This document shows, piece after piece, positions 11,385-64,000 of a DNA stretch of 64,000 nucleotides. Position numbers and translations under genes: made by a program. This DNA comes from Candidatus Micrarchaeota archaeon (GTDB taxonomy: Archaea; Micrarchaeota; Micrarchaeia; Norongarragalinales; UBA8480): assembly GCA_043805855.1 (NCBI GenBank), contig JAZDHP010000005.1:1132-65131 (forward strand), written 5' to 3'. Position 1 is the stretch's first letter. Every line of letters starts with the position of its first letter. The notes under the pieces are model-generated. The model ran no database searches. It saw only the letters and a list, made by a program, of their open reading frames with translations, and was not told the DNA's origin.

Positions 11385-13070
11385 TTAAACATTTTTAACT
11401 GCAGCTAGCACTTGCGGCCAAGTTTCTATTAAACCGGCATATTCGTGTAAACTTTGATGCATTTTTTCTGGAGGAATTACTGCATCGTAAACTTCGTTTC
11501 TTTTACTTGAACCAAACAGCGCCAAATTCCTTGTCAATTGTAGTGTTGCTTTTCTTAACTTAGGGTCGCCGTGCCACCAACTGCGTTTATCTGCTAACAT
11601 TTGGCTAGAACTTTTCACTTGGCTGTCCCACTTTGCAAATTCAGACGAAACGAGCCTTCGTATTTTTGCATGTCCAACTCGAATTGCCTCTGGAGTTGCG
11701 TTTATTTTTATTTGGCGAGCTAAATGTGCTGGCGAATCAGAGCGAACTATTTGTTTTAATACATCGTAAACTGGAAGAAAACTAATGCTTTGGCCATACT
11801 CGCGAAAGATTCCTCGCGAACTAGCTTTATGATGAAGCACGGGCAAATTAATTCGGTAAACTCCACCGTCAAGTAAACGATGCATTAACATGGACCAAGT
11901 TGAATCTTCACCGCGTAAATTAGCAGTTGGGTAAGGCACACTACGCGCAAGTATATCAGCCCGTAGAGTAACGTTTGCGCCGCCTAGACTTGAAGTTTTT
12001 TCAATTTCAGTTAACACCGGCGCATTTGGATCATAGTAGCGAACTCCTAAATTAAACGCGCCTCTTCGATTTATCCCTTGAGAGTAAGCTGAAAGTAAAC
12101 GAAACGCTTGGTTATAGCGCAAGTGTCGTCCAACTTCAGGCACTTCAGTTAATTGAGACGCTAGCCCACCTACTAACTCAGTTGGTTTTTTACCGCGTGC
12201 AGTTTTAACAAAAAGTCCAACTTTTTCAAGGAAAAACGGTATAAGCCGCTGTGGTTCTTTGATATCTTTAGTTACTCGGCCGCTCACTAATTTCACTCTT
12301 GAATTTGAAAACACTGAGTCAAGTTGGCTAAAGAAATTAAACAAATGGCTACGCGTAGGAACTGTTACTCCATTTGTTTTAGTTAAATGTAAATTTTCAA
12401 GTGCAATGTCATCGTCGAAGAAAGTTACTAAATCAGTGGGAGCAGCGTGGCGCATTGCAACTAGTAGAGATAAGTTGCGTACGCCGCCAAACCCGTGTTT
12501 TAATCTGCTTTTGTCAGGAAAGAGAAAAGGATCTAAACTAACACCCGATTTGGCACCTAAGCGAGAAATAAATTGCGCTTGTTTAGCTTTGTCATAATGC
12601 ACAACTTCAGCTAAGTGCGGGTACTTTTTACCAAAGCGTTCGAGAACCCTGGCATTGGCTTTTTCAAAACGCGGTTCAGTTGAATCATCAACAACCACAA
12701 TTTTTATTTTACGACTGTAACCAAAGCGCCTCATGTTTTCAACGATACTCTCAACACATCGATTCAAAAACAAAGGCCTATTTTGAGTCGGTATAACTAC
12801 TACGTGGCCAAAATTACCACGAGCAGTAGACGTAAAAGTAGCTGCTGGCCGTTGAAGCTGTGATTCGACATGCGGTGGTCTGCCGGGCGTTCCACCAACT
12901 GGCCCAAATAATAGCTGCGCTTTATCTGCAATTGACACTGGCCGCCCAGGTGACAACTGCTCGCGTCTAGCAAGTGGGTTTTGAAGCCCTAACCCGGTTG
13001 CTACAGCTCTAGATTGCTGCTCACGCTCAAGTGGGTTTCGAAGCCCTAAACCCGTTTTTACAACTGCCAT
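11385..13070 (-). CDS. Family 2 glycosyltransferase-like protein with N-terminal tandem peptide repeat
   Basis: 561 aa. VVIPTQNRPLFLNRCVESIVEN...KIKIVVVDDSTEP is the canonical GT2 N-terminus. The N-terminus carries TGLGLRNPLEREQQS/TGLGLQNPLARREQLS, a ~48-bp DNA direct repeat at 12960..13060. Confidence 0.6.
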   Translation of the reverse strand: MAVVKTGLGLRNPLEREQQSRAVATGLGLQNPLARREQLSPGRPVSIADKAQLLFGPVGGTPGRPPHVESQLQRPAATFTSTARGNFGHVVVIPTQNRPLFLNRCVESIVENMRRFGYSRKIKIVVVDDSTEPRFEKANARVLERFGKKYPHLAEVVHYDKAKQAQFISRLGAKSGVSLDPFLFPDKSRLKHGFGGVRNLSLLVAMRHAAPTDLVTFFDDDIALENLHLTKTNGVTVPTRSHLFNFFSQLDSVFSNSRVKLVSGRVTKDIKEPQRLIPFFLEKVGLFVKTARGKKPTELVGGLASQLTEVPEVGRHLRYNQAFRLLSAYSQGINRRGAFNLGVRYYDPNAPVLTEIEKTSSLGGANVTLRADILARSVPYPTANLRGEDSTWSMLMHRLLDGGVYRINLPVLHHKASSRGIFREYGQSISFLPVYDVLKQIVRSDSPAHLARQIKINATPEAIRVGHAKIRRLVSSEFAKWDSQVKSSSQMLADKRSWWHGDPKLRKATLQLTRNLALFGSSKRNEVYDAVIPPEKMHQSLHEYAGLIETWPQVLAAVKNV

Positions 13071-13095
13071 TCAACCGCCAGACTTAATTTTATAT

Positions 13096-14643
13096 TTACT
13101 TGCGCAAAATGCTGCTCACTATGTGCAAACGCTGTTCAGGTGAAAGCGAGTTATTGTGCGCTTCTGCTAAGAAAGCTAAAGCCACCCTTGCTTTATCCTT
13201 TGCATCTACTTCTATTGGCGCAAGTTGAAGGTTGCTAAAGTTCCTTACATTAAGGTTGCGTAACCCGCGACTGTGATAAGCTAATGTTGCTAAACTTTCT
13301 CTTGGCAATTCATGAGGCGCACCTGCAACAGAAGCGCCAACTTTAGCTAGTTGAGCCGACGTGTGAAAGGCAACCATCTGCTTTTGCAAAGGCGTTAACT
13401 TAATCGCATCTTCAGCGGTTTTTCCTATTCTAAGTTCATCTAGATTGTCAACTGAAGGTTTAGCACCTCTTGGACCTATGAAAAACTTATGCCCTTCGGG
13501 AATTAACCGGCTAATTATTTTGCTATTACCCCCTTGTGCCATTATAACCGTCTTTAACCTACTTTGGAAGTTTCTAATACTAGACGTGTTTAAAGCTGCA
13601 TTTGCAAATGACCGCATGTGGTCTGCGTTTATACTAGAACCAAACCCAGCAGCACTGACCTTAGCGCTGAATTCATTTGCATGGTACAGTAACTCATTAA
13701 GAGCATCACTGCGCATTGGTTCTTCGTTGCCAGCAAAGAAATGACGTGAAGGTTTATGAAGTGCTAAACCCCGCATCATTAAAGAGTGTAAGTGTAAATC
13801 TCTATCAGCGTACACTTCTCCCAAAGTGGCTTTAAGTATTCCAGCGCCGCTAGTTGCTTCGCCGCTAACTGCTGCTGGGTCTTCGCCGCTAACTGCCACA
13901 GTTGCAGCTGCACCTGTGCCATCTGGTTCAGAAACGTCAACATGCGCTGCACCCCCATGATCGCCTGGTTCTGATACATCTGGAATGTCGCCACTATGCG
14001 GCGCAGCTTCACCTTCAGAAACATCAACTGGATCTGGGTCAGGATCGTGTTTGTTTGGCTTTAACCCTAGGTCTTCAATTGCAGACAATATACCAGAAGC
14101 GATTTCGTCGCGAGCCGTGCTTTTGCTAAATAGCTCTCTCAAGTTAAAGCCTTTTCTACCTTTTGCAGCTTTCATGTAAACCGCAGCTACGTTTTTGCCA
14201 AAGAATCTCCTTCCGGCCACGTCAACCTGCTCTACAACGTCCTTGTGAGTCAAAACCTTTTCTAAATAACTTTTCCCTTGACGTGCAACTAAACGGCTAA
14301 ACTCCTTCTTAGCTTCAGTTCTACCTTCTTCAGTTGAAAGACTTTCATCTGTAAGTTTATACTTTCTATTTAAATATCTTAACTCTCTCTCTGGCAGTGA
14401 AAGCATAAACGAATGTATAAACGATTCCCGTACAATGGGAGGTCTACTAGCTAGTATCTTACCAGTTTTAAGAATAGCATTTTCCTGCCGGCGAGTCATT
14501 TGACCCATCGTGCCTAAAACGTCTGCAGTGTCTCTAAAGTAGTCCAACCTACCGCCGCGACGAGCCGCAACGAAACCAGGACGCAACCGCCTAACCGTTG
14601 CCTCACTTAAATTTCCCCTAACTGCCTTTTTCCACAAACCCAT
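13096..14643 (-). CDS. Hypothetical protein with acidic low-complexity linker (DPDPDPVDVSEGE...)
   Basis: 515 aa. Co-directional with, and 25 nt from, the GT2 gene. Confidence 0.55.
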   Translation of the reverse strand: MGLWKKAVRGNLSEATVRRLRPGFVAARRGGRLDYFRDTADVLGTMGQMTRRQENAILKTGKILASRPPIVRESFIHSFMLSLPERELRYLNRKYKLTDESLSTEEGRTEAKKEFSRLVARQGKSYLEKVLTHKDVVEQVDVAGRRFFGKNVAAVYMKAAKGRKGFNLRELFSKSTARDEIASGILSAIEDLGLKPNKHDPDPDPVDVSEGEAAPHSGDIPDVSEPGDHGGAAHVDVSEPDGTGAAATVAVSGEDPAAVSGEATSGAGILKATLGEVYADRDLHLHSLMMRGLALHKPSRHFFAGNEEPMRSDALNELLYHANEFSAKVSAAGFGSSINADHMRSFANAALNTSSIRNFQSRLKTVIMAQGGNSKIISRLIPEGHKFFIGPRGAKPSVDNLDELRIGKTAEDAIKLTPLQKQMVAFHTSAQLAKVGASVAGAPHELPRESLATLAYHSRGLRNLNVRNFSNLQLAPIEVDAKDKARVALAFLAEAHNNSLSPEQRLHIVSSILRK

Positions 14644-22036: not shown

Positions 22037-23524
22037 TTATTTAAACTTGAAAGTCATTGTGCTTTGCAAGGCGTTTGATTCATCTTCGTTTACTTTAAAA
22101 CTAGGATCGCCGTCGACAATTTTTACATTTAATTGCAAACTAGCACCTAAATAAGGACTATAACCTTGGCCATCTAGATTGAGAAACGCGTCGCTTTGGT
22201 CGTAAATTACTTTTTTAATCGCGTCTTCACCAGTGCAAGTTACTGCAGTTCCAACGTGCGTACATCGCCCAACTGGAATATTAGCTTGCATAAATTCAAC
22301 GAAAATTAAATCAGGCATTTTGCCAACCGCAGGTTTAACAACCTGTTCGAAAAACCTTTCCACAAGTTTTTCCCGCGCGCCTTCGCGAGTTGCGTCGGTT
22401 ATTGATCCGCTTGACTGTGTGAATCCAATGTCATTTGGTAACGCGTTGGACGCACAAACTGCGCCATGGCACACGCCATCGAGTATTCCTTCTCGATCCA
22501 TATCATTTACTCCAATTTGCGGACCGTATGCTAAAAGTGAATAGAACTTAAACGCTGCATCTTCGTATTTCATTAACGGAAAAGCAATTGGAAGGTAAAA
22601 ATCTGCAGAGTCAGACAACGCGCCGGTGCGTAGATAATTTCCCGCGTCGTCTTTCACTTGCAAGCGCGGTAAACTTGCATAAACTTGGGGATTATTTGGC
22701 GTAACTTTGACAAAGAAAATTCCAGAATCACAACCCGGGATAATATTATCACCTTCGCATATATCGCCCGGATTTAATGTATCACGCTTGCAGCACTGTA
22801 AATTCCCGCGGCTAAATGCAGCGCAGTCAATTGTAACTCCTTGCATTAAATTTTTACAATTTGTAATATAAGTCTGGTAGTCAAAATCAGCACCGTTTCG
22901 CGGGTCAAAAAACTCTTGGAATTTAACAGCATTGCTTGGTGAGAGCGTCATACCTTCAAATTCAAATTTTTGGTTTATATTGCTCAAGAAATTTTGCAAG
23001 CCATACTTGTGGTTATTCATACAAGATGGTTCAGTTGCACGGCAGTCTGCTCGATTTCCACAATTACGATCACATTCAGTATCGCCAAGCGAATCTCCAG
23101 TGCTTGAACAAACTACGCTGTACAAACTATCTCTAATTCTAGTGCAACGCGTAAAACGCTCGGTTTTCAACGCCTCTTCCTTTTCACTTAGCAAATAACT
23201 AGGGCTGTTTGTAACTTCAATTCCGAAAATATCCCAACCTACACTTGTTAACGCTTGTTCAGTAACTGTTTTCAAATCTTCTCTAAATAAAGAACCAGCA
23301 TCGCTGCGGTAAAGTTCAATAATTGCAGAAATTCTATTCTGGTAAGCAGACTGCGCTATTTGCGAAACGGCGTTACTCTCCGCTTTGCTAATGCTAACAA
23401 CAAACACAATCGCAGTTACAAAAATAATCGTGCCAATGAGTGGCGCAGCGATGAAAGCTTTCTTCATGGAAAAAACAACACAAGCGTAATATAAAAAGTA
23501 ACTTCGTAAAACAATTAATGGCAA
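22037..23524 (-). CDS. Cys-rich secreted/anchored protein, unknown function
   Basis: 495 aa. N-terminal TM/signal MKKAFIAAPLIGTIIFVTAIVFVVSISKA, with many Cys in the mature part. Lies immediately upstream of, and co-directional with, the giant gene. Confidence 0.65.
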   Translation of the reverse strand: MPLIVLRSYFLYYACVVFSMKKAFIAAPLIGTIIFVTAIVFVVSISKAESNAVSQIAQSAYQNRISAIIELYRSDAGSLFREDLKTVTEQALTSVGWDIFGIEVTNSPSYLLSEKEEALKTERFTRCTRIRDSLYSVVCSSTGDSLGDTECDRNCGNRADCRATEPSCMNNHKYGLQNFLSNINQKFEFEGMTLSPSNAVKFQEFFDPRNGADFDYQTYITNCKNLMQGVTIDCAAFSRGNLQCCKRDTLNPGDICEGDNIIPGCDSGIFFVKVTPNNPQVYASLPRLQVKDDAGNYLRTGALSDSADFYLPIAFPLMKYEDAAFKFYSLLAYGPQIGVNDMDREGILDGVCHGAVCASNALPNDIGFTQSSGSITDATREGAREKLVERFFEQVVKPAVGKMPDLIFVEFMQANIPVGRCTHVGTAVTCTGEDAIKKVIYDQSDAFLNLDGQGYSPYLGASLQLNVKIVDGDPSFKVNEDESNALQSTMTFKFK

Positions 23525-24228
23525 AAGTTGTTTTGGTTTGGAACGAGCACCCGACTGAAGTTGTTGCGGGTTTCCATGCGAGGAAAGTTGCCGAAATTCT
23601 GAAAAATAAATACGGACACGACGTTGTAATTGAAAAAATTCCAGTTGCCGAGACTAACTATGGCATAATTAGAAATGGAAAGGGAAACAAAGCAAATCAA
23701 TTGCTTGCGCTTAGAGATTCTATAGATTTTTTTCCAAAAGATCCAAGTGGCACAAAGTTTATGTTTAATTTCCACGCTGCACCCGCAGAAAGAATAGGAA
23801 AAAGCACACAAATGCCAGCTAGACTTTTCAAGGTGAGTCATAAAAGATGGCAAGATAATCTTGAAAGATTTGCAACTGAAATTACAATAATTAAAGGAAA
23901 AGGCCGCCAATATGCAATTGAAATGCCTGGATATTTCACTCGCATCCCGGGAAACGCTTATAGAAAAATGCTAGAACAAAAACGAGAATTTGAAACTAAA
24001 GAAAGATCAAAAATTGATAGAAAAATCAGCGCTGGAACATACACCGCTAGAGACATACTTAAGCTAATGGAATTTGCAACTGCAACGCAAAACACTTACA
24101 CTATACAAAGAACCGCACTTCATACTAAAAGACAAAAGAAATTTTTGTCAAGCGACGTTTCCAAAAAAATCGCAGCAGCGATTCACGAGAGAATCAACGC
24201 CAGTAATACCAAACCGCGTAGAACGTAA
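23518..24228 (+). CDS. Paralog family A member 1 (MAKVVLVWNEHPTEVVAGFHARKVA... / ...KIAAAIHERI). Putative metal-hydrolase-like N-terminal domain.
   Basis: 236 aa. One of four paralogs, with 28486, 52914 and 53627. Conserved HxxE (NEHPTE), FNFH, IE(M/L)PG and a C-terminal S.KIAAAIH. A TATA-like gtaatataaaaag lies ~30 nt upstream. Confidence 0.7.
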   Translation: MAKVVLVWNEHPTEVVAGFHARKVAEILKNKYGHDVVIEKIPVAETNYGIIRNGKGNKANQLLALRDSIDFFPKDPSGTKFMFNFHAAPAERIGKSTQMPARLFKVSHKRWQDNLERFATEITIIKGKGRQYAIEMPGYFTRIPGNAYRKMLEQKREFETKERSKIDRKISAGTYTARDILKLMEFATATQNTYTIQRTALHTKRQKKFLSSDVSKKIAAAIHERINASNTKPRRT

Positions 24229-28485: not shown

Positions 28486-29193
28486 ATGGCAAAGGTTGTT
28501 TTGGTGTGGAATGAACATCCAACTGAAGTTATTGCAGGACACCACTGCCGGCAAGTTGCAAAACTCTTACGTGAAATGGGACACGAAGTTATTGTAAAGA
28601 AGATAGCCGCTCGCGACACAATATACGGAACAGTACAACACGATAATTACGCAGCTGCTGGGAAAAAATTACTAAACACAAAGCCAACCGCAGAGATTAC
28701 TGAAGAGTTTGCAAAAAATTTTAATGCAATTACTTTTAATTTTCACGGCTATGCTGCAACTGCTTTACGGCGGTATCGAGCTAAAAAACCAGAAAGATTA
28801 AAGATAAAAGAAAAGTTAGGCAAAAGCTCCTTGATAATACGTGGCGATATATGCTTTTATAGAATTTCACCGCATGCGTTTGCAATTGAAATTCCAGGCA
28901 TTATGGAAAAATTGCCAAGAGAAAAAAGAGCGGTTCAAAAAGAACGATTAAACCAAGCGCTATACGGGGCAATCAAAGCAAAGGAAAGGGCAAACGTAGG
29001 CAAATCATTATTAAAACGAATCGGGGATCATTCAATGCAAATGGATCAAATACTAAACACGACTGACGCTAAGTATCACCTAAACCGCATGCCAATGAAT
29101 TTGCCAGCACAGCAGAATTTTAAATCTCCAGTTATTTCTGAAAAAATCGCAGCTGCTATACACGAGCGGCTTACTTCGCAACGCGTAAAGTGA
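28486..29193 (+). CDS. Paralog family A member 2
   Basis: 235 aa. MAKVVLVWNEHPTEVIAGHHCRQVA...FNFHGYA...FAIEIPG...SEKIAAAIHERL. Confidence 0.7.
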   Translation: MAKVVLVWNEHPTEVIAGHHCRQVAKLLREMGHEVIVKKIAARDTIYGTVQHDNYAAAGKKLLNTKPTAEITEEFAKNFNAITFNFHGYAATALRRYRAKKPERLKIKEKLGKSSLIIRGDICFYRISPHAFAIEIPGIMEKLPREKRAVQKERLNQALYGAIKAKERANVGKSLLKRIGDHSMQMDQILNTTDAKYHLNRMPMNLPAQQNFKSPVISEKIAAAIHERLTSQRVK

Positions 29194-52913: not shown

Positions 52914-53621
52914 ATGGCAAAAGTTGTACTTGTTTGGAACGAGCACCCGACAGAAGTAGTTGCGGGTTTCCACGCGAGGAAAGTTGCTGAAATTCTGCGC
53001 GAAAAATATGGACACGAAGTTATACTAGAAAAGATTCCAGTAAGCGAAACGAATTATGGAATAATCCGAGACGAACCTAGTCCAAAAGTTGCAGCAGAGC
53101 GTCTAGCAAAACTTAAAGGCTCAAGTTTAATTGCAGAGGACTACGCTAGAAAATACGGCGCGCCTGCATTTAACTTTCATGCATCACCCACTATGGCTCA
53201 AGGACAATCTGGCAGAAAACCGGCGTGGCGGTTTAAAGTGGGCAAAACAGACCCAACTAAAAGAACCTGGACTCAACATGAAATTGACTTTTTACCTTGG
53301 AAACAAGGAACTGTAATCGAATTACCTGGAGAGTTATACGCCTCAGGCGCGGGCTCCCTTGGAAGAATGGAAGTAAAACGAACAAGAGTTGAAGATGAAG
53401 CGAAAAAACTTCAAGGAGATGCTAAGATAGTTGCAGAAATGGCAAGTCAAATTAACTACGTTAGTTTGTCAATGCCGTTGCATGAAGAAACGCAAAAGAA
53501 GTATTTATCGCCAATAATTTCCCGCAAAATAGCGGCGGCCATTCATAAACAAGTTACCGGGGAGAAATGGTTCCACATTGGGAGAAAATTGAAAAGAGTT
53601 ATAAACCGTAATCGAGTCTGA
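52914..53621 (+). CDS. Paralog family A member 3
   Basis: 235 aa. The first ~150 nt are about 95% identical to member 4, 5 nt downstream. The middle is unrelated. C-terminal KKYLSPIISRKIAAAIHKQV. Confidence 0.7.
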   Translation: MAKVVLVWNEHPTEVVAGFHARKVAEILREKYGHEVILEKIPVSETNYGIIRDEPSPKVAAERLAKLKGSSLIAEDYARKYGAPAFNFHASPTMAQGQSGRKPAWRFKVGKTDPTKRTWTQHEIDFLPWKQGTVIELPGELYASGAGSLGRMEVKRTRVEDEAKKLQGDAKIVAEMASQINYVSLSMPLHEETQKKYLSPIISRKIAAAIHKQVTGEKWFHIGRKLKRVINRNRV

Positions 53622-53626
53622 AAAAC

Positions 53627-54319
53627 ATGGCAAAAGTAGTACTTGTTTGGAACGAGCACCCGACAGAAGTAGTTGCGGGTTTCCACGCGAGGAAAGTTGC
53701 TGCGATTCTGCGCGAAAAATATGGACACGAAGTTGTATTAGAAAAAATCCCAGTAAAAGAAACTAACTATGGAATTGCTACAGCTTTAGATTCCGGAACA
53801 TCAGCACTAAATATAGCTGCTAAAATAGATAAATTAAAACCATCCATACAAAGGGCTCGAGAACTTGCAGAAAAGCACAGTGCAGTTGTATTCAATTTTC
53901 ACGCAGCTGAATCTGCTAGAATGGCAGACGCAGATAAGAAAGAACCAAAAGAATTTCGCGTTATGAATATTAAAGATAGCGAAGAACATTATCCCGCAGA
54001 AATCACAATACAAGCCAAAGATAGAGAACAAAAACACCACGTAATCGAATTACCAGGAATACAAATAAATTTGCCAACTAAAAAAAGAGAAAAGGCACTT
54101 GAACGAATTAGAAAAATTCTAGAAGCTGCAAAACACTTAAAAAGATCAGACCCCGTAGAGAAATACATTACACAAGTAAGGCTTAATGTCGAACTACACG
54201 AATACTATCACGCGCAAAGAATGGCAGTAACCGATTCAGCACAAAAAAAATACCTTTCGCCAGCAATTTCTGAAAAAATCGCAGCCGCAATCCACGAACG
54301 AATAACAAGACAGCGCTAG
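53627..54319 (+). CDS. Paralog family A member 4
   Basis: 230 aa. Tandem with member 3. C-terminal KKYLSPAISEKIAAAIHERI. Confidence 0.7.
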   Translation: MAKVVLVWNEHPTEVVAGFHARKVAAILREKYGHEVVLEKIPVKETNYGIATALDSGTSALNIAAKIDKLKPSIQRARELAEKHSAVVFNFHAAESARMADADKKEPKEFRVMNIKDSEEHYPAEITIQAKDREQKHHVIELPGIQINLPTKKREKALERIRKILEAAKHLKRSDPVEKYITQVRLNVELHEYYHAQRMAVTDSAQKKYLSPAISEKIAAAIHERITRQR

Positions 54320-54705
54320 CGCTAATCTAATTCTAAATTAAAATAAAAAGTTTCGAAAAAAGTTTTTAAGGCTGATATTTAACGAGCTGTTAAGCAGGAT
54401 TAGAGGGAAGAGAAAAGCCAGTATTAATAATAATTTTGGCAATGGCAGTGTAGATATTACTATGTTTTTTGTATTGACCTTTAGTGACCGTTAGCTCGCC
54501 ACTCGCCCTTACGGGCTCGCGGTTTACACTTCGATTCTATCAAACCCATCTGCTATGGGCGGTCTAAGCTGGCTCGTTTTAGGATTGACTTCGTCCTTAG
54601 ATGCTTTCAGGACTTATCCAAATAGCGCGTGGCTACGCTGCGTGCCGTTTAAATCCAATTGACAACAGCTTAACTAGCGGCGCCGATTCCCCGTTCCTCT
54701 CGTAC

Positions 54706-55404
54706 TTAGGGAGTCTTACCCTCAGCCAGCAATGCACTTCTAGGAGATGCCACCGAACTGTCTTTGTCGCCTTTCTTAACAGCTTTCAACAATTCAAAAC
54801 GTAAAATCTTGTCATTATGACAAGAACCAACAAAATTATAGAATTTCAAAACTTCAGCACTTCCATGAATAATCAAGGCATACATCTTTACAGAAGTGCC
54901 TTTTTTCACGTAAGGGCCGCATACGCGGCCACACTTGATTCCAAAATTCAATATTATTTTTCTTATTTCTTCAAGAACACCTTTATTGGCCTGAGCGAGG
55001 TAAATTCGAATGTTTGCTTCAGGAACTATTCCCATTTTTTCAAAAGAGTTTATACTTCCTTCAGCGTCGAAAAAACCTTTAACATAAGCTGCTTTTACTT
55101 CTTGCGAACCACAATAAATCCAACTTGGAGTTAACCAAGTAGCTTGATCGCCCGTAAATTCAGCTAATTTTGAAAGTTTTTGAAAAACTTCCTTTGATGT
55201 TATACTCAAGCACCAGACACCATGTCTCTTGTCAAGATAAAAACTTGGTTTTTTGTTAAAATTATTTATTATAATTCTAGAAAGAACCTCAAGCCATTCT
55301 TTATTTTTTTGATAAAGCCGAATGCGATAAATTCCTTCTTTAGGAACGATGGAAAAACTTCCATCTCGCAGTGTCCCAATCAAATAAGCTACTTCTTTAT
55401 TCAT
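54706..55404 (-). CDS. LAGLIDADG homing endonuclease (intron-encoded, double-motif)
   Basis: 232 aa. YLIGTLRDGS and KGFFDAEGSI motifs. C-terminus reads into the downstream exon. Confidence 0.75.
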   Translation of the reverse strand: MNKEVAYLIGTLRDGSFSIVPKEGIYRIRLYQKNKEWLEVLSRIIINNFNKKPSFYLDKRHGVWCLSITSKEVFQKLSKLAEFTGDQATWLTPSWIYCGSQEVKAAYVKGFFDAEGSINSFEKMGIVPEANIRIYLAQANKGVLEEIRKIILNFGIKCGRVCGPYVKKGTSVKMYALIIHGSAEVLKFYNFVGSCHNDKILRFELLKAVKKGDKDSSVASPRSALLAEGKTP

Positions 55405-55493
55405 AGCTTGAGAACGGATTTTTAGTTTTTAAATCTTAAGCGACACGTGCTTGCCGGTGTTCCAGTGAATTGTTTACTTTTTGCTAAGAGAGG
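54768..55493 (-). mobile_element. 23S intron 1 (rRNA 3'-proximal) carrying a LAGLIDADG homing endonuclease ORF
   Basis: Conserved block GGGTTCAGAACGTCGCGA is interrupted (E. coli ~2595 region) and resumes at GACAGTTCGGTG. Boundaries +/-10 nt. Confidence 0.6.
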
Positions 55494-55651
55494 TCGCGAC
55501 GTTCTGAACCCAACTAACGTGACTTTTTAATGGATGAACAACCCAACCCTTGGTGGCTCCTGCACCACCAGGATAAGTCGAGCCGATAGCGATGTACCAA
55601 ACCGCGCCGTCGATATATTCAATCGAAAACACCTTTGCAGATGTTTTATCA

Positions 55652-56600
55652 AAACCGCAGAAGAAAAATAAATTCACTTCCGGATTCTGAAACGAACAAA
55701 CGGAGCCTACGAGTCGTATGGTTCAAATGTTCTTGCGTTTCTCCCTTTTTTACAAAGTTAACACTGATCTGAAAAAGCCACTAACAATTAAATTAATTCC
55801 TAGTTGCAATTCTATCTAGTGCAACTTTGCCAAGGAAAAACGAAGACTTTGAATAAACTCGTTGGTTCTATTGCCGAATGTTCATGAAAAATGAACTCTC
55901 GGGCGCGACGAGCCTGTATAGAGTTTTCGATTTCAATTCATCACTAGCAAATTAAAATAATTTGTTTAAAGCATTTAGCTTTTCTGGATGCTCGATGCCA
56001 ATACAATCGCGAAAACGTGCAATGTTCTGCACGCCGCGTATGTTTAGCTGCCCAATGTCTCTGGAATTAGTTATCTTGTTAGAAACTATTCCAAAACTTT
56101 CAAGCATCTGCGCTATAAGCGCAAGTTTCAACGTGTCTTTTTGGTATATTTCAATTCTATAAGACGTTCCAGGTTTTCTTTTTGGAACGCTCCCCTCTGC
56201 GTCGAAAAATCCCCTTATGAAATGTGCTTTCACTTGAAGATCTTCATCCAACAGAGAAGGTAGATTTTGCATTGCGTTTTTTATTTCAAAAAACGCTTGC
56301 TTTGAATATATCCTTACTCGATAAAGTTCGCCTTTTGCCTCGCGTTTTCTAACTTTTGTATATTTGCCATAGACTTTTTCAAATCTAGGTAAAATAGAAT
56401 TAGCGAGCCAAGCGGCTACTTTCTGCTCATACTCAATACAATATTCCCCTCTTGCCTTGCATTGATACAAACAACCATCACCAAAAGCGCCTAGTAAATA
56501 GGCGAAATCTTGATTCATATTGATTGCAAGGAAATGTTGAATTTAAAGCTTGAGCTACACGTCGTTGCCAGTGATTTTGCGAATTGAAAACGAAATTACC
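55652..56600 (-). mobile_element. 23S intron 2 carrying a LAGLIDADG ORF. Inserted after GCTACCCTGGGGGTAA (the I-CreI/I-DmoI-type region of domain V).
   Basis: The exon sequence GGGGAUAACAGG is broken after GGGGGTAA at ~56600 and homology resumes near 55650 (..ATATCGACGGCGCGGTTTGGTACATCGCTATCGGCTC). Boundaries +/-25 nt. Confidence 0.55.
55952..56518 (-). CDS. LAGLIDADG homing endonuclease (intron-encoded)
   Basis: 188 aa. YLLGAFGDGC and RGFFDAEGSV motifs. Confidence 0.75.
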   Translation of the reverse strand: MNQDFAYLLGAFGDGCLYQCKARGEYCIEYEQKVAAWLANSILPRFEKVYGKYTKVRKREAKGELYRVRIYSKQAFFEIKNAMQNLPSLLDEDLQVKAHFIRGFFDAEGSVPKRKPGTSYRIEIYQKDTLKLALIAQMLESFGIVSNKITNSRDIGQLNIRGVQNIARFRDCIGIEHPEKLNALNKLF

Positions 56601-56811
56601 CCCAGGGTAGCTTGTCTGTCAGAAAGGACTCCCATTAACGGAGATGCCTTTGTTCGTTAAGCCCCACTTTCGTGTCTGCGTTCCATTTTGTTAAGAACAC
56701 AGTCAGGCCAGCATTTGTCTTTAACCCTCTACAGCGGATTTCTAACCCGCTTGAGCTGACCATTAGGCGCCTTTGTTATTTTTTCGAAGGCGTACCGCTT
56801 ACTGGCTTTCC

Positions 56812-57590
56812 ATAGCAAGCAAAAGTCCATAAAAAATATTTTACTTAACGAAGCAAATGCTTCGTTAAGGCCTTACACCTTTTAAGGTGTAAGTTAACCG
56901 GCACGGAGGTGTCGGTTAAAGTTTAAAAGCAACTAACTTCATCTCTTTGGTCGATGGATGAAAATTTAGCTACGCTTATTGGCATGTTATTGTCAGATGG
57001 ATCTGTATATTTCGACAAATCCAAGGGAACCTATTGTATTCAGTTCACTAACAAAAACAGCCAAATGCTTGAGTATTTCAAATTTTTAGTTCTCCAATGT
57101 TTTGGACGGCGCAATTTTCACATTAATAAATGTAAAAACGCGGTTTCTGTTCGCTTCTTCTCTAAAGGAATTGCTGAATTTCTTTTTACATTTTCTCCAT
57201 CTTTCAGAACCTTGCGGTTTAAAAATGGAACGTATCCAGAAACTAGAATTCCAAAAGAAGTGTTTGCTGAACAAAAATTCGCCGTTGCATTTCTACGCGC
57301 TTATGCGTCTTGCGATGGATGTATTTATTCCAACGAAAGTCACAACGCAGTTATAGAAATTGCATGCGTTCATCCTAAATTGAAACAGCAACTTTTTGAG
57401 TTACTTGAAACTCTCGGAATCGAAAGTTTAGTAACTGCAAAAGGAATTCGAATTTATCGTAGAAGCGAAGTTGAAAAATTCGCAACTACAATTCGTTTCC
57501 TTCCAGAAAGTACCGTTGTTCAATCTAGTTCTCCTAACTTAGGAAAACTAAAGAATGAAATTTTGGACTCTTGTTTATCTTGCCACAAGA
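56812..57590 (-). mobile_element. 23S intron 3. Its homing endonuclease ORF is on the plus strand, antisense to the rRNA.
   Basis: Exon homology (GGTGGATAGTTTGACTGGG, ~E. coli 2235-2255) stops near 57590 and resumes near 56810 (GAAAGCCAGTAAGCGGTACGCC). The rRNA-3' side of the intron carries the 60-nt element shared with the 16S ORF-less intron. Confidence 0.5.
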
Positions 57591-57619
57591 AAACACCCAG
57601 TCAAACTATCCACCTGTAG
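56954..57619 (+). CDS. LAGLIDADG homing endonuclease encoded antisense to the 23S rRNA
   Basis: 221 aa. LIGMLLSDGSVYF and LRAYASCDGCIY motifs. Last ~10 codons overlap the exon. Confidence 0.65.
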   Translation: MDENLATLIGMLLSDGSVYFDKSKGTYCIQFTNKNSQMLEYFKFLVLQCFGRRNFHINKCKNAVSVRFFSKGIAEFLFTFSPSFRTLRFKNGTYPETRIPKEVFAEQKFAVAFLRAYASCDGCIYSNESHNAVIEIACVHPKLKQQLFELLETLGIESLVTAKGIRIYRRSEVEKFATTIRFLPESTVVQSSSPNLGKLKNEILDSCLSCHKKTPSQTIHL

Positions 57620-57908
57620 CTGTTCCACTTCTTACATGAAGTGGTGAGATTCGCAGTCAAAGCAGAGCAGTGTTACACTTTCGCCTATTCGCACCCCGGA
57701 AGGTGCGACATAGCGGCTCCTGCTTACGCTGTGCAGTTTCAACCGTGAATCAACCACAGGCTATAGTTAAGCTCCATGGGGTCTTCGTTTCCCCCTAGAA
57801 GTTCCTGGCATGTTCACCAGGTAGTAAGTTCACCAGGTCCAAAGCAGGGACAGTGGGAGGCTCGTTACGCCATTCATGCGAGCCGCCAATTAAGCGGCGA
57901 GGTATTAC

Positions 57909-58628
57909 GCTCATGTCTGTTACACGCGTTTAAAAAATACGCGGGGTCAACCATTTCTGTTGACCTCTGCATATCGCTATGCAGATCGGACTATATCTTC
58001 ACCATTTCTGGCGTTTAGCGTATAGTCTCTGAGGATTCTAAATAAAACGGAATCGTCTTTCTGTTCATTGTGGAAATTATTCCAGCTATTTTGTCAAGTC
58101 CTTCCTTTGTTAAGTGTTGCTTTGCTTCCATGATTGAAAGAATTTCTGCAAATTTTTCCAAGTTCTTTTGTTTGGAAGTTTGCAATTTGTACCGTTTGAA
58201 GAATTCTACTATTAATTTCAAATTCTTTAAACCGCGTACGCGAAATTCTTTTCGATCACCGTGGTTTACAGTTACTTCTCCAAAACCAAAATATTCTTTG
58301 ATTCGGTAAAGCACTTGTTCATCACGTTGATGCTGCACAACTCTAAATTCTGGAAGAACCGTCCAGCCGGCGGACATTTTCTCTAGCTTGTTTATAGCTA
58401 CATGAAAACATCCTTCTCCGTCAACGAACCCAACGATCCAGTTTGGATTTAGTCTTTCCTGCTGATTGTCTGCACTCATAACATTGTCATTACAGCTCAC
58501 GTGTTTTTGATTTAAATTTAAATCGCAACACGTCATTGCCGGTAATAGTTTGAGATACCCCAGAGTTTCCAGCATATAGCTAAATTTTGTTAAGGCAAAT
58601 GTAATCTTACCTTAAGAGACTCAGAGTT
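57909..58628 (-). mobile_element. 23S intron 4 carrying a LAGLIDADG ORF. Inserted after ..CTTAAGGTA (E. coli ~1917 region, a known archaeal LSU intron site).
   Basis: CCUAAGGUA|GCGAAAUUCC is interrupted. The exon resumes at GCGTAATACCTCGCCGCTTAATTGGCGGCTCGCATGAATGGCGTAACGA (~57905). Confidence 0.55.
58015..58575 (-). CDS. LAGLIDADG homing endonuclease (intron-encoded)
   Basis: 186 aa. WIVGFVDGEGCFHV motif. Confidence 0.7.
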   Translation of the reverse strand: MLETLGYLKLLPAMTCCDLNLNQKHVSCNDNVMSADNQQERLNPNWIVGFVDGEGCFHVAINKLEKMSAGWTVLPEFRVVQHQRDEQVLYRIKEYFGFGEVTVNHGDRKEFRVRGLKNLKLIVEFFKRYKLQTSKQKNLEKFAEILSIMEAKQHLTKEGLDKIAGIISTMNRKTIPFYLESSETIR

Positions 58629-59227
58629 TAGACTGTCAGAGTTCCGTAGAACGCTGAATTAGTCCCGCTCTTTAGCAGTCCTTCATTGGGTTGAAACCCA
58701 ACTTCAGATACTACCAGTGAGCAGGCGTCACCCTCCGTACAAAACGTTTCCATCTTGCGGAGAGCTGTGTTTTTGATAAACAGTCGACCTCCCCTAGTTA
58801 TTGCAACCTACAGGTCCATACTTGATGTAATCTCGTACAAAAGTGTAGGCACCCCTTTTCCCGAAGTTACGGGGCTGACTTGCCGAGTTCCCTTGCTTTG
58901 GTTCTCCTGCCACGTCTTGGCTTTCTCTGCCAGGGGCACCTGTACTGGTTCTAGGTACGATCTCACGACTCGCTTCTTGCACTGTTTTCAGGGGCTCATG
59001 GATTCGGTTTGTATTTCCTAGCTTGAACAAGTGCTCTTCACAACGAAACTTCCTTGTTCTATTCTAGTTAAACGCTCAAGGAAATGAGCGCCAAACTTAT
59101 CCACAAGCGTCTAATGCAAGCTTGTGTTACCACGAGCTGTCGCGAGGCACACGAATATTAACGTGTTTCCCTTTCCGCTTTAATCACCGTTACGTGTAGC
59201 GTTAGGATCGGCTTACTCTTGGTCGAC

Positions 59228-59330
59228 TCGCTGAACCTTTTCTTTCTCAAAGAAATAAAACGTTCACGAAAAGAAAGATTTTAATTTTCTTTTCCGTAGA
59301 CGCTTTTCTTTTCCCAAAAGAAAAGGGTCT
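59228..59330. repeat. Cluster of three short A/T hairpins (CTTTTCTTT-N-AAAGAAAAG type) forming an expansion segment inside 23S
   Basis: ccttttctttctcaaagaaataaaacg / cgaaaagaaagattttaattttcttttccg / cgcttttcttttcccaaaagaaaaggg. Same hairpin family as in the ITS and tRNA introns. Confidence 0.6.
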
Positions 59331-60961
59331 CTAGCGTTGCCAAGAAACCCGTGCCCTTCCGACGTTGGAGTTTCTCACTCCAAATTGATGCTACTAATAC
59401 CAAGATATTCATTACTATTTAGTCCACACGTCCTCACGAACGTGCTTCGACCCAAACAGTACGCCCTCCTACCAAATCTACGCTTGTCTGCGTAGTTTTA
59501 CAGTATCGGTGACTGACTTTAGTCCCGATAGTTTGCAGCGCTTCGATTCTTGATGGATCCGCTGTTACGCGTTGTTTAAAGGATGGCTGCTTCTGAGCCT
59601 ACCTCTCCACTGTCTGAGAATCAAAACGCCTTTTGTTTACACTTAGCCAGTACTTTGGGACCTTAACTACAATAGGGGTCGTTCCCCTTCAGGAGTACGC
59701 GCTTACCTCGTACATCCCAACTCCCACCTTCTAAGGCAATACTAGCTTCGGAGTTCGACAAGAAAGTGAGGATTTTACTCCCCGCTCTTTCTGATCGGTC
59801 GCTCTACCTAGTATTCGCCTCCAGCGAGGCTGTCCTGCGGGACACTTCGGAGGGAACCTGCTAATGCCCAGCTCGAATGAACTTTCATCCCTAAACCCGA
59901 GTCACCCGATCGGATAAACCAGAAACGGTTGCAGGCCTCCACCAACCTGTAGGTCGGCTTCGCCTTACTCGGGCATAGATCGCATGGGCTTCAGGTTTCA
60001 CAATAGTGACTTATGGCCAGTTACGACCACTCTCCTGGCGTCTTGCGACGTTGCGAGAATTTTGGTTTCCCTGTGCATATTGCTCGCCACTCTCGTGAAC
60101 TCCTTGGCTCTTGCTTCGAGAAGTATGACGCAACGCTGGTCCCCCTTGCGGAGGTCCTTTCACGCCGCGCCTTCTTGTTACCATTTAGTTTCAGGCACTT
60201 TGAACTCCCCTTTCGGGGTTCTTTTCAGTTTTCCCTCTCGGTACTTAATTCACTATCGGTCTTGAGTTATATTTAGCGTTGCAAGTTAATACTCGCGCGT
60301 TCACATTCCCAAATCGGGGAACGCTACTCTGGACACTCGCACACCTTGAACTTCAGCGCTTACAGGGCTATCACCTTGTTGCGCGAAACTTTCCAGTTCT
60401 CTTCAGCTAAGAAATTCAAGTGTTAAAAGCGAGGCCAAACACCACATGTACGCCTCCTTGCGGGGCGAATTCGGTTTGCACTATTCTGCGTTCGTTCGCA
60501 CTAATAACAGAATCTCGAGTTTGATTTCTTTTCCTCTCCCTACTAAGATATTTCAATTCAGGAGGTTCGCAATCCTTTCGGATCAATTAAGACACCCACG
60601 GTTCAATGCCTGCATGCGGCTACCCGTGGCTTTTCGCAGCTTGCCGCGTCCTTCATCGCTACTCAAGCCTAACCATCCACTAAACGGTTTTAAAAGCAAG
60701 TAACATCTATTCTACCATTGCCAAAACGTATTTGAAACTTATACTTCTAAGTTTAAAATTGTTTTAACGTGGCTTTTTCTTCCCTCTAATTTTTGCCTAC
60801 TTAACAGCTTCACGTCTACAGCGGCTCGGAGCCACTGCATTATCAGCCTTATTCAGATTTAGCAAAGCCCGCATAAGAGGAACGGGTTTATATTTTGCAA
60901 ACCTACATTTTTTCGAACAACAAAACGCGCCATTTAAACGCATTCTATTTAGAAACTTGAA

Positions 60962-61225
60962 TGGACTCGACGGGATTTCCTTCACCCGTTTTCTTTTAAG
61001 GCAAAAGGCCTTTCATTCCAAAAGAAAAAAAATCAAAACAGTTTTTATGAAAACTATTTTTTCTTTTGGGGGTGACGGACCTTTTCTTTGTAAAAGAAAA
61101 GGGATGTCTTTGAACCCGCGACCTCCTGCTTTTCTGAGAAAAGAAATTTTCTTTTCGTCGACGTTTTCTTTTTGAAAAGAAAAGGTCGCTGCAAAGCAGG
61201 CGCGCTACCACTGCGCTACGAGCCC
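60962..61225 (-). tRNA. tRNA-Ala (anticodon UGC) with two introns: canonical 37/38 (59 nt, 61131..61189) and T-loop 59/60 (133 nt, 60976..61108). No encoded CCA.
   Basis: Hand-folded. Exon 1 GGGCUCGUAGCGCAGUGGUAGCGCGCCUGCUUUGCA (61225..61190). Exon 2 AGCAGGAGGUCGCGGGUUCAAA (61130..61109). Exon 3 UCCCGUCGAGUCCA (60975..60962). Gives a 7-bp acceptor with the G3:U70 Ala identity pair, 4-bp D stem, 5-bp anticodon stem (CCUGC/GCAGG), and T stem GCGGG/CCCGU. Lies in the 16S-23S spacer, as in typical archaeal rRNA operons. Confidence 0.7.
60976..61190. repeat. ITS / tRNA-intron hairpin repeats (CTTTTCTTTT-N4-8-AAAAGAAAAG family)
   Basis: ccttttctttgtaaaagaaaaggg (61080-61103), cgttttctttttgaaaagaaaagg (61161-61185), ttttcttttaaggcaaaaggcc / ccaaaagaaaaaaaatc (60988-61035). 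Both tRNA introns are built largely from these hairpins. Confidence 0.6.
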
Positions 61226-61929
61226 ATTTATTGTAAATAGAGTTTTTTGAAATTGTTTTTGGAAAGAAATGGCGTTTGAAAATTTAGGGACTAGATCTAG
61301 TCTGTATTCTATCGATTGCACAAAAAATGTTTGGAGGTGATCTAACCGCAGGTTCCCCTACGGTTACCTTGTTACGACTTAACCCTCCTCACGAACTAAT
61401 AGCTTGAATCAATCCGTTGGACTGAGCCTCACTAAAAGCTCGCTTGGGTGGCTTGACGGGCGGTGTGTGCAAGGAGCGGGGACATATTCACCGCGCGATG
61501 ATGACACGCGATTACTAGTCATTCCAGCTTCACGAGGATGAGTTTCAACCCTCGATCCGAACTTAGGTAAAGTTTTGGGGATTGCCTTCGCCTTTCGGCG
61601 TCGGAACTCATTGTCTTTACCATTGTATGCCACGTGTGGCCCAGGAAATTCAGGCCATACTGACCTAGCGTCGCCTTCTCCTTCCTCCCACTTAACGTAG
61701 GCAGTCTTCACAGAGTGCCCCTTACATTACTGTAAAGGTAGCAACTGTAAACGAAGATCTCGCTCGTTGCAGGACTTAACCTGACACCTCACGGCACGAG
61801 CTGACGCTGGCCATGCAACACTTCTCAGCTTGTCGGCCAAGATCTTTAGTCTGGGCTTCATTCTGCTGTCTTTCCTGGTGAGTTTCCCGGCGTTGAGTCC
61901 AATTGAACCGCAGCTTATGGAGCTAAGAG

Positions 61930-62242
61930 AAACACGGAAAATAATTATTAAATTTTCCCAACTAAGTTTATAAAAAAAGCTAAATGCTAATTTTTATTTT
62001 TTTAAAAATAGATATTAGTGGCTACAGGTTATTTAGTAAAAAAGTTAACTTACACCTTTTAAGGTGTAAGGCCTTAACGAAGCGAAAGCTTCGTTAAGTA
62101 AACTGGAAATTTTTGCGATCAATTGGCATATTGAGCTCGCTGAATTTTGTTGGTAACTTTACGTGTGGTAAATTTACCTTACAGTTTTCTTTTTAATTTA
62201 CGAAATAAAATGTAGCAGTGTATTCTCGAAGCTTATCCACGA
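61930..62242 (-). mobile_element. 16S intron B (~310 nt, no ORF), inserted after GCACCACAAG (E. coli ~920 region)
   Basis: The exon continues canonically to CACAAG at 62243. Homology resumes at ..CTCCATAAGCTGCGGTTCAATTGGACTCAACGCCGG (~61925). The intron contains the palindromic 60-nt element shared with 23S intron 3. Lower boundary +/-10 nt. Confidence 0.55.
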
Positions 62243-62278
<36 letters not shown>

Positions 62279-62384
62279 ATCTTGCGACCGTACTCCCCAA
62301 GTGGCAGACTAAACGGCTTCCCTACGGCACTGCATTCGCTCGAAGCAAATGCAACGCCAAGTCTGCATAATTTACTGCTAGGAC

Positions 62385-63011
62385 TTTCCGGCACTAGCTA
62401 GCTATATAAAAAGTTAAACCTATTCACGTTCAACGCGCCTGTGATGTCTATTCTAAAGCCACCATCAGAGCATCGACTGAGCGAACAGGCAATTTTATCT
62501 GCTTTTAACACTTTCACTATTTTCGTTATCGCTTTCTCGTTGTATATCTCAAAAGCGATACGTGGTTTGTTTCTCCACAGATAGCTATAAGCTTCTGCAT
62601 CGAATAAACCTTTTGTAAAAGCGCGGAAAAACTTTTTATTACTAAAATTTGGAATCACAAAAGTTTTACTTTTGTTTCTACCTTGGCAATGTAATAATTT
62701 TCTCAATTCAGCTTCAATTTTTACTGAATAAATTGAAATTAAATACATTTCGTGACCGTCGGAATATTTTCTCTTTTTTACTATTGGTTTTTTGCCAAAA
62801 ACTCTTTGCATTAGTTCAGCAATTTCAACTGACCTTTGTAAATATTTTGTACCAATAGAAATTCCGCGGCTTTGAAACCACCCATCTCCGGCAAATAATC
62901 CAAGTAAATAACAAAAATCCTTTGAATACATAGATTAGTTATTTGTATTGAATTATTAAGCTCATCGAGACAGGTCGTTGCCGGTGATTCCGGCTAATTA
63001 GCTAACTAGTG
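62385..63011 (-). mobile_element. 16S intron A (~627 nt) with LAGLIDADG ORF, inserted between GGATTAGATACCCGGGTA and GTCCTAGC (E. coli ~800 region)
   Basis: Exon homology breaks at 63011 and resumes at 62384 (GTCCTAGCAGTAAATTATGC). Confidence 0.6.
62398..62931 (-). CDS. LAGLIDADG homing endonuclease (16S intron-encoded)
   Basis: 177 aa. YLLGLFAGDGW and KGLFDAEAYS motifs. Confidence 0.75.
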   Translation of the reverse strand: MYSKDFCYLLGLFAGDGWFQSRGISIGTKYLQRSVEIAELMQRVFGKKPIVKKRKYSDGHEMYLISIYSVKIEAELRKLLHCQGRNKSKTFVIPNFSNKKFFRAFTKGLFDAEAYSYLWRNKPRIAFEIYNEKAITKIVKVLKADKIACSLSRCSDGGFRIDITGALNVNRFNFLYS

Positions 63012-64000
63012 TACCCGGGTATCTAATCCGGTTTGCTCCCCTAGCCTTCGCCCCTCACCGTCGGACGTGTCTTGGTACGACGCTTTCGCCACTGGTGGTC
63101 CTGCAAGGATTACAACATTTTACCGTTCCCCCTGCAGTACCTCGTACCTCCTCCACTCCCTAGTCTGGTAGTGTTCCCTGCTCGCCTCTAAGTTAAGCTT
63201 AGAGATTTGACAGGAAATTTTCCAAACCGGCTACGGGCGCTTTAGACTCAATATTCGTGGACACCACTCGTGCTACCTGTATTACCGCGGCGGCTGGCAC
63301 AGGATTTACCCACCACTTATTCTCCAAGCTATTCAAGCTTAGTAAAAGAATCCCTTTCGGGAATCACTCGGATTACCCCCGTCACGCTTTCGCGCATTGC
63401 GGAATTTTCGCGCCTGCTGCACCCCGGAGGGCTTGGGCCCTTGTCTCAGTGCCCATCTGGGGGCCATCACTCCCATGACCCCTACTGATTATAGGTTTGG
63501 GGGTCCGTTACACCTCCAACAGCCTAATCAGCCGCAGTCCCATCCTAGAGCGAAACCATTCCAATTCATGGCTCTTTTTACTCTTTCACCATTCCAGGTT
63601 GAAAGAGCTATGCAGTATTAGCGACACTTTCGCGTCGTTATTCCACTCTCTAGGGTAGGTTGACTACGTGTTATTCAGCCGTACGCCAAGACTCGAAGTC
63701 GAGTCTTTAGACTTGCATGGCTTAATCGCAATCCGATAGCGGTGTCCTCCAGCAGGATCAACTGGTGTTGAAGAACCGGTTTACCCGGTTCTCTGCTTGA
63801 GTCGCAATTTCAAGTAGGAATTGACTTTCTCTACTCCGCTAAATTTTTTTCTCACCCATTTCTTTCGAAATTTCAAAAAACCCTACGTCAAACCCAAGAC
63901 GAATGACTACGCGGTAGTTTGACTCGTTTAATTGAGTTTCCATAAAAAACTAGCACAGCTCGTAAACGTTTACTCGCCGAAGGAGAAACCTAAAGGTTCC

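Follow-up and report, generated by a model that had tools for sequence, protein, structure and literature searches.

Miniature inverted-repeat transposable elements (MITEs) are known from archaea, in Sulfolobus and Haloquadratum types, and elements of the IS5/Harbinger type make 3-bp TWA target duplications. The closest described counterparts of the structure discussed here are organellar: the double-hairpin elements (DHEs) of Allomyces mitochondria (Paquin, Laforest and Lang, 2000, as cited in PMC2800124 and PMC4478555), and the hairpin-forming elements of sponge mitochondria and the GC42 clusters of yeast, in both of which substitutions concentrate in the loops (PMC2800124; PMC4478555). For the yeast GC clusters, "merger and shuffling" of palindromic units has been described as well (PMC4478555). 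The subject of the present analysis is a short double hairpin on an archaeal chromosome, located twice in one ribosomal RNA (rRNA) operon of a Candidatus Micrarchaeota archaeon; the analyzed stretch, hereafter the window, comprises 64,000 nucleotides (64 kb) of contig JAZDHP010000005.1 (assembly GCA_043805855.1). One copy lies in a 23S intron and the other, in the opposite orientation, in a 16S intron devoid of an open reading frame (ORF), just as an earlier note, made from the sequence alone, had placed them. On balance, we are inclined to regard the double hairpin as a miniature, non-autonomous palindromic insertion element, that is, a 50-bp DNA module copied into two unrelated rRNA introns, once in each orientation.

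The two copies form an inverted pair of 59 nt, 56840-56898 and 62044-62102, with 90% complementarity (repeat finder). A comparison of the whole host introns by blastn (56797-57595 against 61915-62234), which serves as the dot plot proposed in the earlier note, returned the same inverted 59-nt match at E = 2e-16 and, apart from it, only trivial direct self-matches of each palindrome; the similarity between the copies ends sharply at 59 nt. Read on the plus strand, copy 1 (23S intron; 56840..56898) consists of TTTA, hairpin A, GC, hairpin B and TTAAC, and copy 2 (ORF-less 16S intron; 62044..62102) of GTTAA, hairpin B, GC, hairpin A and TAAA. Hairpin A (56844-56869 and 62073-62098), CTTAACGAAGC-N4-GCTTCGTTAAG, has the geometry 11-N4-11 and a perfect stem of 11-12 bp, hairpin B (56872-56893 and 62049-62070), CTTACACCT-N4-AGGTGTAAG, the geometry 9-N4-9 and a perfect stem of 9-10 bp, and the GC linker joins these two different palindromes. 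In copy 1 the loops are AAAT for A (CTTAACGAAGC AAAT GCTTCGTTAAG) and TTTA for B (CTTACACCT TTTA AGGTGTAAG). The element is AT-rich (37% GC). The sequences and hairpins quoted in the earlier note were thus recovered at both sites, together with the 59-nt inverted match. Allowing up to three mismatches, the patterns of hairpins A and B occur exactly twice each in the 64-kb window, the number expected from shuffles being 0.00 in the case of A and 0.02 in that of B. As to homology, it had been argued from a linker taken to be non-palindromic; this linker, AAGGCCTT, is itself palindromic and proves nothing. The copies are homologous and inverted in order all the same, because two different hairpins run A-B in one and B-A in the other with matching flanks TTTA and TTAAC.

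The copies differ at six positions, every one of which belongs to the eight loop bases (P = 6e-7 if the mismatches were placed at random), and the stems are 100% identical. Structure prediction, another check suggested beforehand, gives two hairpins on both strands, with z-scores of -6.7 to -9.4 for RNA and about -7 for DNA. A search against Rfam 15, including the C/D and H/ACA guide RNA and group I families, left nothing that overlaps 56840-56898 or 62044-62102 at E <= 1, and the perfect stems, as read from the sequence, carry no K-turn, pocket or box motifs.

The first host intron (56799..57595, minus strand; a 799-nt cmscan insert) interrupts the P-loop region of 23S rRNA between GACUGGG and GCGGUACGCC, and Rfam yields no group I match (RF00028) there. 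It contains a gene for a LAGLIDADG endonuclease (56954..57619, plus strand; Pfam LAGLIDADG_3, E = 6.6e-16), antisense to 23S, which begins 56 nt past the element and whose last eight codons enter the antisense strand of the exon. A conserved TATA-like box is seen upstream of this gene on the gene's own strand. The 23S copy is located upstream of this proximal box and ~45 nt from the 3' terminal hairpin of the intron; a scan for bacterial-type promoters and terminators around the copy, a method ill-suited to archaea, revealed nothing relevant. The endonuclease has 24 homologues, and the relatives whose contigs were fetched are metagenome-assembled genomes (MAGs) of Micrarchaeota and Aenigmatarchaeota (their loci are denoted below by L numbers), which by itself assigns the window to a Micrarchaeota-like archaeon of the DPANN group.

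These orthologous introns provide empty sites for the 23S copy. The element is absent from them in eight lineages (L014, L015/16/17, L004, L007, L008-13, L018-21, L022 and L023), the leaders of L007, L008-13, L018-21, L022 and L023 being shorter. The nearest orthologue, that of L014 (endonuclease 77% identical), is alignable from the end of the intron up to the start codon, and reads ...AATTTTCACCGGCAAC... at the very place where the window has ...TATTTTA, 53 nt and then ACCGGCAC...; in a longer alignment, ...TATAAAAACAATTTTCACCGGCAACGAGGTG... of L014 corresponds in the window to ...CATAAAAAATATTTTA, the insert CTTAACG...GTGTAAGTTA, and ACCGGCACGGAGGTG... The same empty site is found in L015-17 and L004. 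When excision lengths from 46 to 60 nt were scanned, the best fit was 52-53 nt for the three empty sites, and removal of the 50-nt core with one TTA produces TTTTAACCGG, which aligns locally and without gaps with TTTTCACCGG of L014. The 23S copy is therefore a clean, lineage-specific insertion of 52-53 nt, which arose later than the split from the nearest sampled relatives.

The earlier note had further supposed that the element may be the remnant of an inverted endonuclease-bearing intron, and had found the antisense ORF beside the 23S copy consistent with this. That gene does adjoin the copy, and it is also true that palindromes disturb assemblies (the gap in L009, discussed below), which would speak for a kindred explanation, namely an assembly artefact duplicating a palindromic read fragment. 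We reject the remnant, and find an artefact hardly credible. Outside the 59 nt there is no similarity between the introns on either strand, and tblastn of the relatives' intron ORFs against the 16S intron detected no protein remnant. In every fetched homologue (loci L004-L036) the endonuclease is antisense to 23S, with the same exon junction between GGCGTACCGC and TTRCTGG...; this orientation is therefore an ancestral trait of the intron family rather than a local inversion, is independent of the element, and lends the remnant idea no support. As for an artefact, one would not expect it to leave a pair of clean, in-frame insertions whose 3-bp repeats match while their loops differ.

Alternatively, the hairpins could have been selected for a function, such as stabilization of the excised or circularized intron RNA, or of the endonuclease transcript, against exonucleases, signaling in transcription or processing, or binding of a dimeric protein to the palindromic DNA. 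The perfectly conserved stems with variable loops and the very strong folding z-scores are compatible with that, operators and the targets of homodimeric LAGLIDADG enzymes are similar in geometry to these 9-N4-9 and 11-N4-11 palindromes (the operon codes for one LAGLIDADG_1 enzyme that has a single domain and presumably acts as a homodimer), the loops read on the same strand are the same or similar in both copies, and arrays of perfect hairpins recur in the rRNA-operon spacers and introns of relatives. We consider such a function unlikely, however. In eight lineages the orthologous 23S introns function with no such element, the two copies present A and B in opposite orders when transcribed in the rRNA sense, the perfect stems have none of the pockets, bulges or boxes of known guide and regulatory RNAs and no Rfam match, and, with two copies only, identity of the stems is equally well explained by recent copying. 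Of the mobile structured RNA module supposed in the earlier note, the first half holds, as the module is discrete and transferable, with sharp ends and a clean insertion in 23S; the structured-RNA role does not fit, because orthologous introns lack the element and the hairpins follow each other in opposite order in the rRNA-sense transcripts. Since its orthologues do without the element, the 23S intron does not require it, and the element probably plays no role in splicing, homing or the mature ribosome.

The second host intron (61915..62234, minus strand; 320 nt, a cmscan insert of 330 nt) lies in the 16S gene between GUGGAU and GCUGCGG, its junction being ambiguous within a repeated AUAAGCU. 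It has no blast match in any fetched locus. At the same site L004, the closest relative with a 16S gene (exons 94-96% identical), possesses a 663-nt ORF-bearing intron with similar ends, and the internal motif GCGAG..CCAATTGATCGC occupies a concordant position in both introns, although the support from the alignment score is marginal (reached by 6 of 300 shuffles). The ORF-less intron of the window is probably a shortened relative of such an ORF-bearing intron. The ORF of the L004 intron (12845-13372, minus strand) encodes 175 amino acids with a match to the helix-turn-helix family HTH_3 in the precomputed annotation and not a homing endonuclease, an unusual cargo for an rRNA intron. In the window, 17 nt separate the shared motif from the element, whose position is thus about that of the start of the L004 ORF. 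The 16S copy would also be an insertion, in which case the element-free 16S intron, 53 nt shorter, should read ...CCAGTTTAACTTTTTT...

Both copies are flanked by direct TTA repeats (in copy 1, at 56841-56843 and 56894-56896 around the 50-nt core 56844-56893) and share the bracket T-TTA, core, TTA-AC, from which the target TTTAAC is reconstructed in both introns. Because TTA repeats stand on both sides and the same structure forms on either strand, we favor insertion at the DNA level. It could have proceeded by cut-and-paste, copy-and-paste or template switch, with the 3-bp TTA at TTTAAC being either duplicated or used. A trans-acting enzyme or a repair process may recognize the hairpin or cruciform form, and such recognition would keep the stems and allow the loops to drift or flip. 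The insertions would be tolerated in non-coding DNA that is spliced out; within the compact genome of a DPANN archaeon, 50 bp may be harmless almost nowhere but in introns and spacers. Homology, inverted order, the 23S insertion and the TTA repeats at the borders are demonstrated, whereas this mode of movement and the neutrality of the element are inferred.

A smaller yet realistic chance is to be granted to an exchange between the two introns without any dedicated mobility, by gene conversion or by ectopic recombination (recombination between introns had been considered in the earlier note as well); a short patch would have been copied once in the course of repair. The two sites are 5 kb apart in one operon which is rich in endonuclease genes and hence prone to breaks (there are only two copies, both in this operon, along with five LAGLIDADG genes), palindrome-mediated template switching easily produces inverted copies, and a template switch would be in keeping with the TTA/TTAAC microhomology at the border, which is similar to the CTTAAC at the end of the element itself. 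Hairpin C (56894..56919, plus strand; TTAACCGGCAC GGAG GTGTCGGTTAA), situated outside the shared element, is relevant in this respect. It is largely ancestral, its counterpart in L014 being TCACCGGCAAC GAG GTGTTGATCAA, but in the window it is a better palindrome, A-like at the foot, whose 11 pairs form only in the plus-strand RNA, by means of one G-U; it seems to have been "corrected" in situ toward a better palindrome, which is in favor of gene conversion. On the other hand, gene conversion does not account for the origin of the source copy, a site-specific event is suggested more than a random patch by the 9 nt of flank and the exact 3-bp repeat that both copies have in common, and the hairpin families of relatives, present in multiple copies at four or more sites, argue for a repeatable process.

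Several observations count against a mobile insertion element. Only two copies are known. Neither patterns nor a covariance model of A-B revealed a third one in the 64-kb window, and the same model, run over the window and 24 loci (339 kb of relatives), found no diverged copy; its extra matches were the element's own reverse strand and hairpins B and C only (32 bits on 56862-56922, minus strand). Fuzzy patterns of hairpins A, B and C across all loci were not in excess over chance. As an exact pattern with free loop, hairpin A has no match in 185,579 GTDB species genomes and three in the JGI metagenomes, all in unrelated bacterial coding sequences without hairpin B, and the exact A-B junction has none in viral contigs. 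The additional copies for which the earlier note had advised a search have thus not turned up in the window, in the relatives or, by exact pattern, in public collections. None of the 42 ORFs of the window matches a transposase family in Pfam, Y1_Tnp and OrfB included. The terminal inverted repeats, CTTA(A)C / G(T)TAAG, are no longer than 4-5 bp. As regards the TTA of 3 bp, in its AT-rich context it could reflect microhomology or a target preference instead of a true duplication. The 16S copy has no empty-site comparator: the contigs of L037 (a 98.4% identical strain), L038 and L039 stop just before the intron, in the case of L037 30 nt before it.

Finally, the loops are alike on one DNA strand (B is TTTA in both copies; A is AAAT in one and GAAA in the other) despite the inverted order of the hairpins, so that either flips of the loops or a history of shuffling is needed. 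In the former case, the element would have been inserted in inverted orientation, each loop being flipped afterwards; loop flips are common at perfect inverted repeats, as in plastid genomes. In the latter, the units would have been shuffled with no block inversion, and a "merger and shuffling" like that of the yeast GC clusters would account for the A-B and B-A orders with unflipped loops.

How, then, does the putative insertion element compare with the described ones? In common with the DHEs and the sponge elements, it is a short module of two hairpins in a compact genome, housed in introns (those elements also reside in spacers and in variable regions of rRNA), its stems are conserved and its loops vary, it encodes no protein, and its mobility is deduced from presence and absence in close relatives, here for the 23S copy only. 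The DHEs differ in being present in many copies and, as summarized in PMC2800124, in lacking target duplications, whereas two TTA-flanked copies are known here. Besides, this element belongs to an archaeal chromosome, and a sequence relation with the organellar ones is not to be expected; it may be called an analogue of the organellar double-hairpin families and not a member of them. With yeast GC42 (PMC4478555) it shares the character of a 40-50-nt palindromic mobile sequence with loop-concentrated substitutions, but it is AT-rich and non-mitochondrial.

Among elements of prokaryotes, MITEs resemble it as small non-autonomous insertions with a short TTA flanking repeat, inverted ends CTTA...TAAG and occurrence in both orientations. 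In contrast to them, it is 50 bp long and not the usual 80-500 bp, and is made of two separate palindromes instead of one long palindrome. Of its ends, CTTAAC... and ...GTGTAAG, only CTTA/TAAG is inverted (4 bp, or 5 with a shift), which falls short of the terminal repeats of ~10 bp or longer demanded of a MITE. The repetitive extragenic palindromic sequences and bacterial interspersed mosaic elements (REP/BIME), which go with REP-associated tyrosine transposases (RAYT; PMC3733652), and the palindrome-associated elements derived from IS200/IS605 are similar in being mosaics of palindromes with short linkers in non-coding DNA in both orientations; neither hairpin here is adjoined by the REP tag GTAG or CGTC (PMC3733652), the feet of both A and B being CTTA/TAAG. 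Elements derived from IS200/IS605 have subterminal hairpins with guide sequences at both ends, are inserted 3' of a fixed tetranucleotide and depend on a TnpA (Y1) partner. Here, no more than 0-1 nt separates hairpin A from the border, too little for a guide segment, and the window contains no Y1 transposase. The TTAC directly 5' of hairpin A in both copies recalls the target of IS608.

The archaeal small- and large-subunit (SSU and LSU) rRNA models of Rfam match the window, 16S (61332-63768) and 23S both being on the minus strand. The full-window Rfam alignment of 23S halts at 56452, and a local search extends the gene to ~54476 (54476-60704, minus strand), across two further endonuclease-bearing introns; this end agrees with a 35-nt inverted repeat around the gene (54434-54468 / 60692-60726) that resembles a processing stem. 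The inserts in 23S measure 732, 985 and 799 nt (cmscan and local search): besides the host intron of copy 1, these are the introns at ~55604-56588 and ~54763-55494 (both on the minus strand), the latter at a site homologous to E. coli 2593. Two introns were detected in 16S by cmscan, and five ORFs of the operon are LAGLIDADG endonucleases according to Pfam. One of the five is the single-domain LAGLIDADG_1 ORF mentioned above, presumably a homodimer (58015-58575, minus strand), whose intron overlaps a sub-threshold group I match (57967-58146, minus strand; 35.5 bits, E = 1.4e-6, the gathering score being 50). Group I introns of Micrarchaeota are documented at LSU 1923, 1931 and 2593, and the intron at 57967-58146 fits those reported at 1923/1931 (PMC6125680). 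Adjoining the operon there is a tandem of two paralogous genes (52914-53621 and 53627-54319, plus strand) out of four in the window that encode proteins of ~235 amino acids with the N-terminus MAKVVLVWNEHPTEVVAGFHARKVA... (the others at 23518-24228 and 28486-29193, plus strand); none of them has a Pfam family in a bulk scan.

Small hairpin modules are also found elsewhere in these operons. A hairpin element of 102-105 nt, CTTTTCTTT...AAAGAAAAG, interrupts the mature 23S sequence at 59227-59331 of the window (minus strand; 105 nt), and its relatives are situated at 318-419 in L014, 2831-3026 in L015 and 2990-3185 in L016. L015/16 share its 23S site with the window, and L004 lacks it; the copy of L014, 87-89% identical, is at another 23S site, which corresponds to 56687/56688 of the window and is empty there. 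The CTTTTCTTT-type element behaves like a mobile mini-intron or insertion. In L015/L016, a 66-nt double-hairpin insertion X1-X2 (CATTTGCC.. and CAAATGCC..) is nested in another small element, and the window and L014 have none there. The X hairpins recur at at least four places in L015, where X and Y hairpin pairs are encountered in both orientations (hairpin sites 2925-2983, 4698-4760, 6107-6162, 7323-7379 and 7518-7575). Such presence and absence of the CTTTTCTTT-type element and the X hairpins means that small hairpin modules come and go in these operons, in lineage-specific sets. Perfect hairpins of 8-13 bp form a separate family in every related genome and are located in introns, in the spacers of rRNA operons and in some of the intergenic regions (L018 10305-10487; L027 5071-5240 and 6505-6559; L033 8195-8279 and 8506-8527; L008 11102-11149), and tandem arrays of 2-6 different perfect hairpins with spacers of 0-6 nt are present in L008/L023, L018, L027 and L033. 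A hairpin "foot" motif shared across lineages was considered as well, but A/T-rich feet dominate the counts, and we make no claim about it.

In the 16S-23S spacer (60962-61225, minus strand) a tRNA-Ala(UGC) gene with a G3:U70 pair can be recognized by eye, split by two introns (after the anticodon loop and in the T-loop) of ~190 nt in total, both of which contain CTTTTCTTT-type hairpins; ARAGORN reported no tRNA at 60962-61225. Apparently, palindromic modules break short-read assemblies of these operons, as the gap in L009 and the contig ends of L037, L038 and L039 at the 16S intron exemplify. In L009, a gap of 100 N (11101-11200) replaces exactly the double hairpin of L008 in genomes that are otherwise 99.8% identical. 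A presence/absence polymorphism between L008 and L009, considered at one point, was rejected for this reason, the difference being a scaffold gap and no real indel.

These observations bear on one more explanation, according to which the double hairpin is a nested mini-intron of the bulge-helix-bulge type transposed by way of the RNA splicing machinery, as was proposed for archaeal tRNA introns. Micrarchaeota (ARMAN) do have a splicing endonuclease of broad specificity and many non-canonical introns (PMC3239211; reviewed in PMC4090602), the 105-nt hairpin element interrupts exon sequence of 23S, and units like it are found within the spacer tRNA-Ala. We nevertheless hold this route to be highly improbable: in either context, the minimum-free-energy and the centroid folds alike show two perfect hairpins that are independent of each other and borders that do not pair, and no bulge-helix-bulge can be drawn; an RNA route would depend on reverse transcription, and the window yielded no candidate for it; and flanking TTA repeats are not expected of reverse splicing.

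A more general proposal, which we put forward only tentatively and with low expectation, is that DPANN archaea harbor a class of mobile double-hairpin modules not described so far, which encode no protein and evolve fast, with different hairpins in each lineage (A-B here, CATTTGCC/CAAATGCC in L015, others in L018, L027 and L033). Such modules would colonize the introns and spacers of rRNA and tRNA genes, and their mode of spreading would depend on the hairpins. Their spread could be tied to the repair of breaks made by homing endonucleases or to template switching at cruciforms in heavily transcribed rDNA. In a non-exhaustive search of the literature on DPANN rRNA introns, no description of such elements was found. 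If it does exist, this class would be an archaeal counterpart of the mitochondrial DHEs and GC clusters.

Our knowledge of splicing or homing is not changed by the double hairpin. On the practical side, such palindromes can confuse the annotation of rRNA genes and introns and the extraction of phylogenetic markers in DPANN MAGs. Should the double hairpin prove to be truly mobile, it would rank as the smallest palindromic insertion element noted so far in an archaeon and the first one inside DPANN rRNA introns, and it would mean that even symbiont genomes of ~1 Mb keep, in the introns and spacers of the rRNA operon, a niche for selfish DNA nested in selfish DNA.

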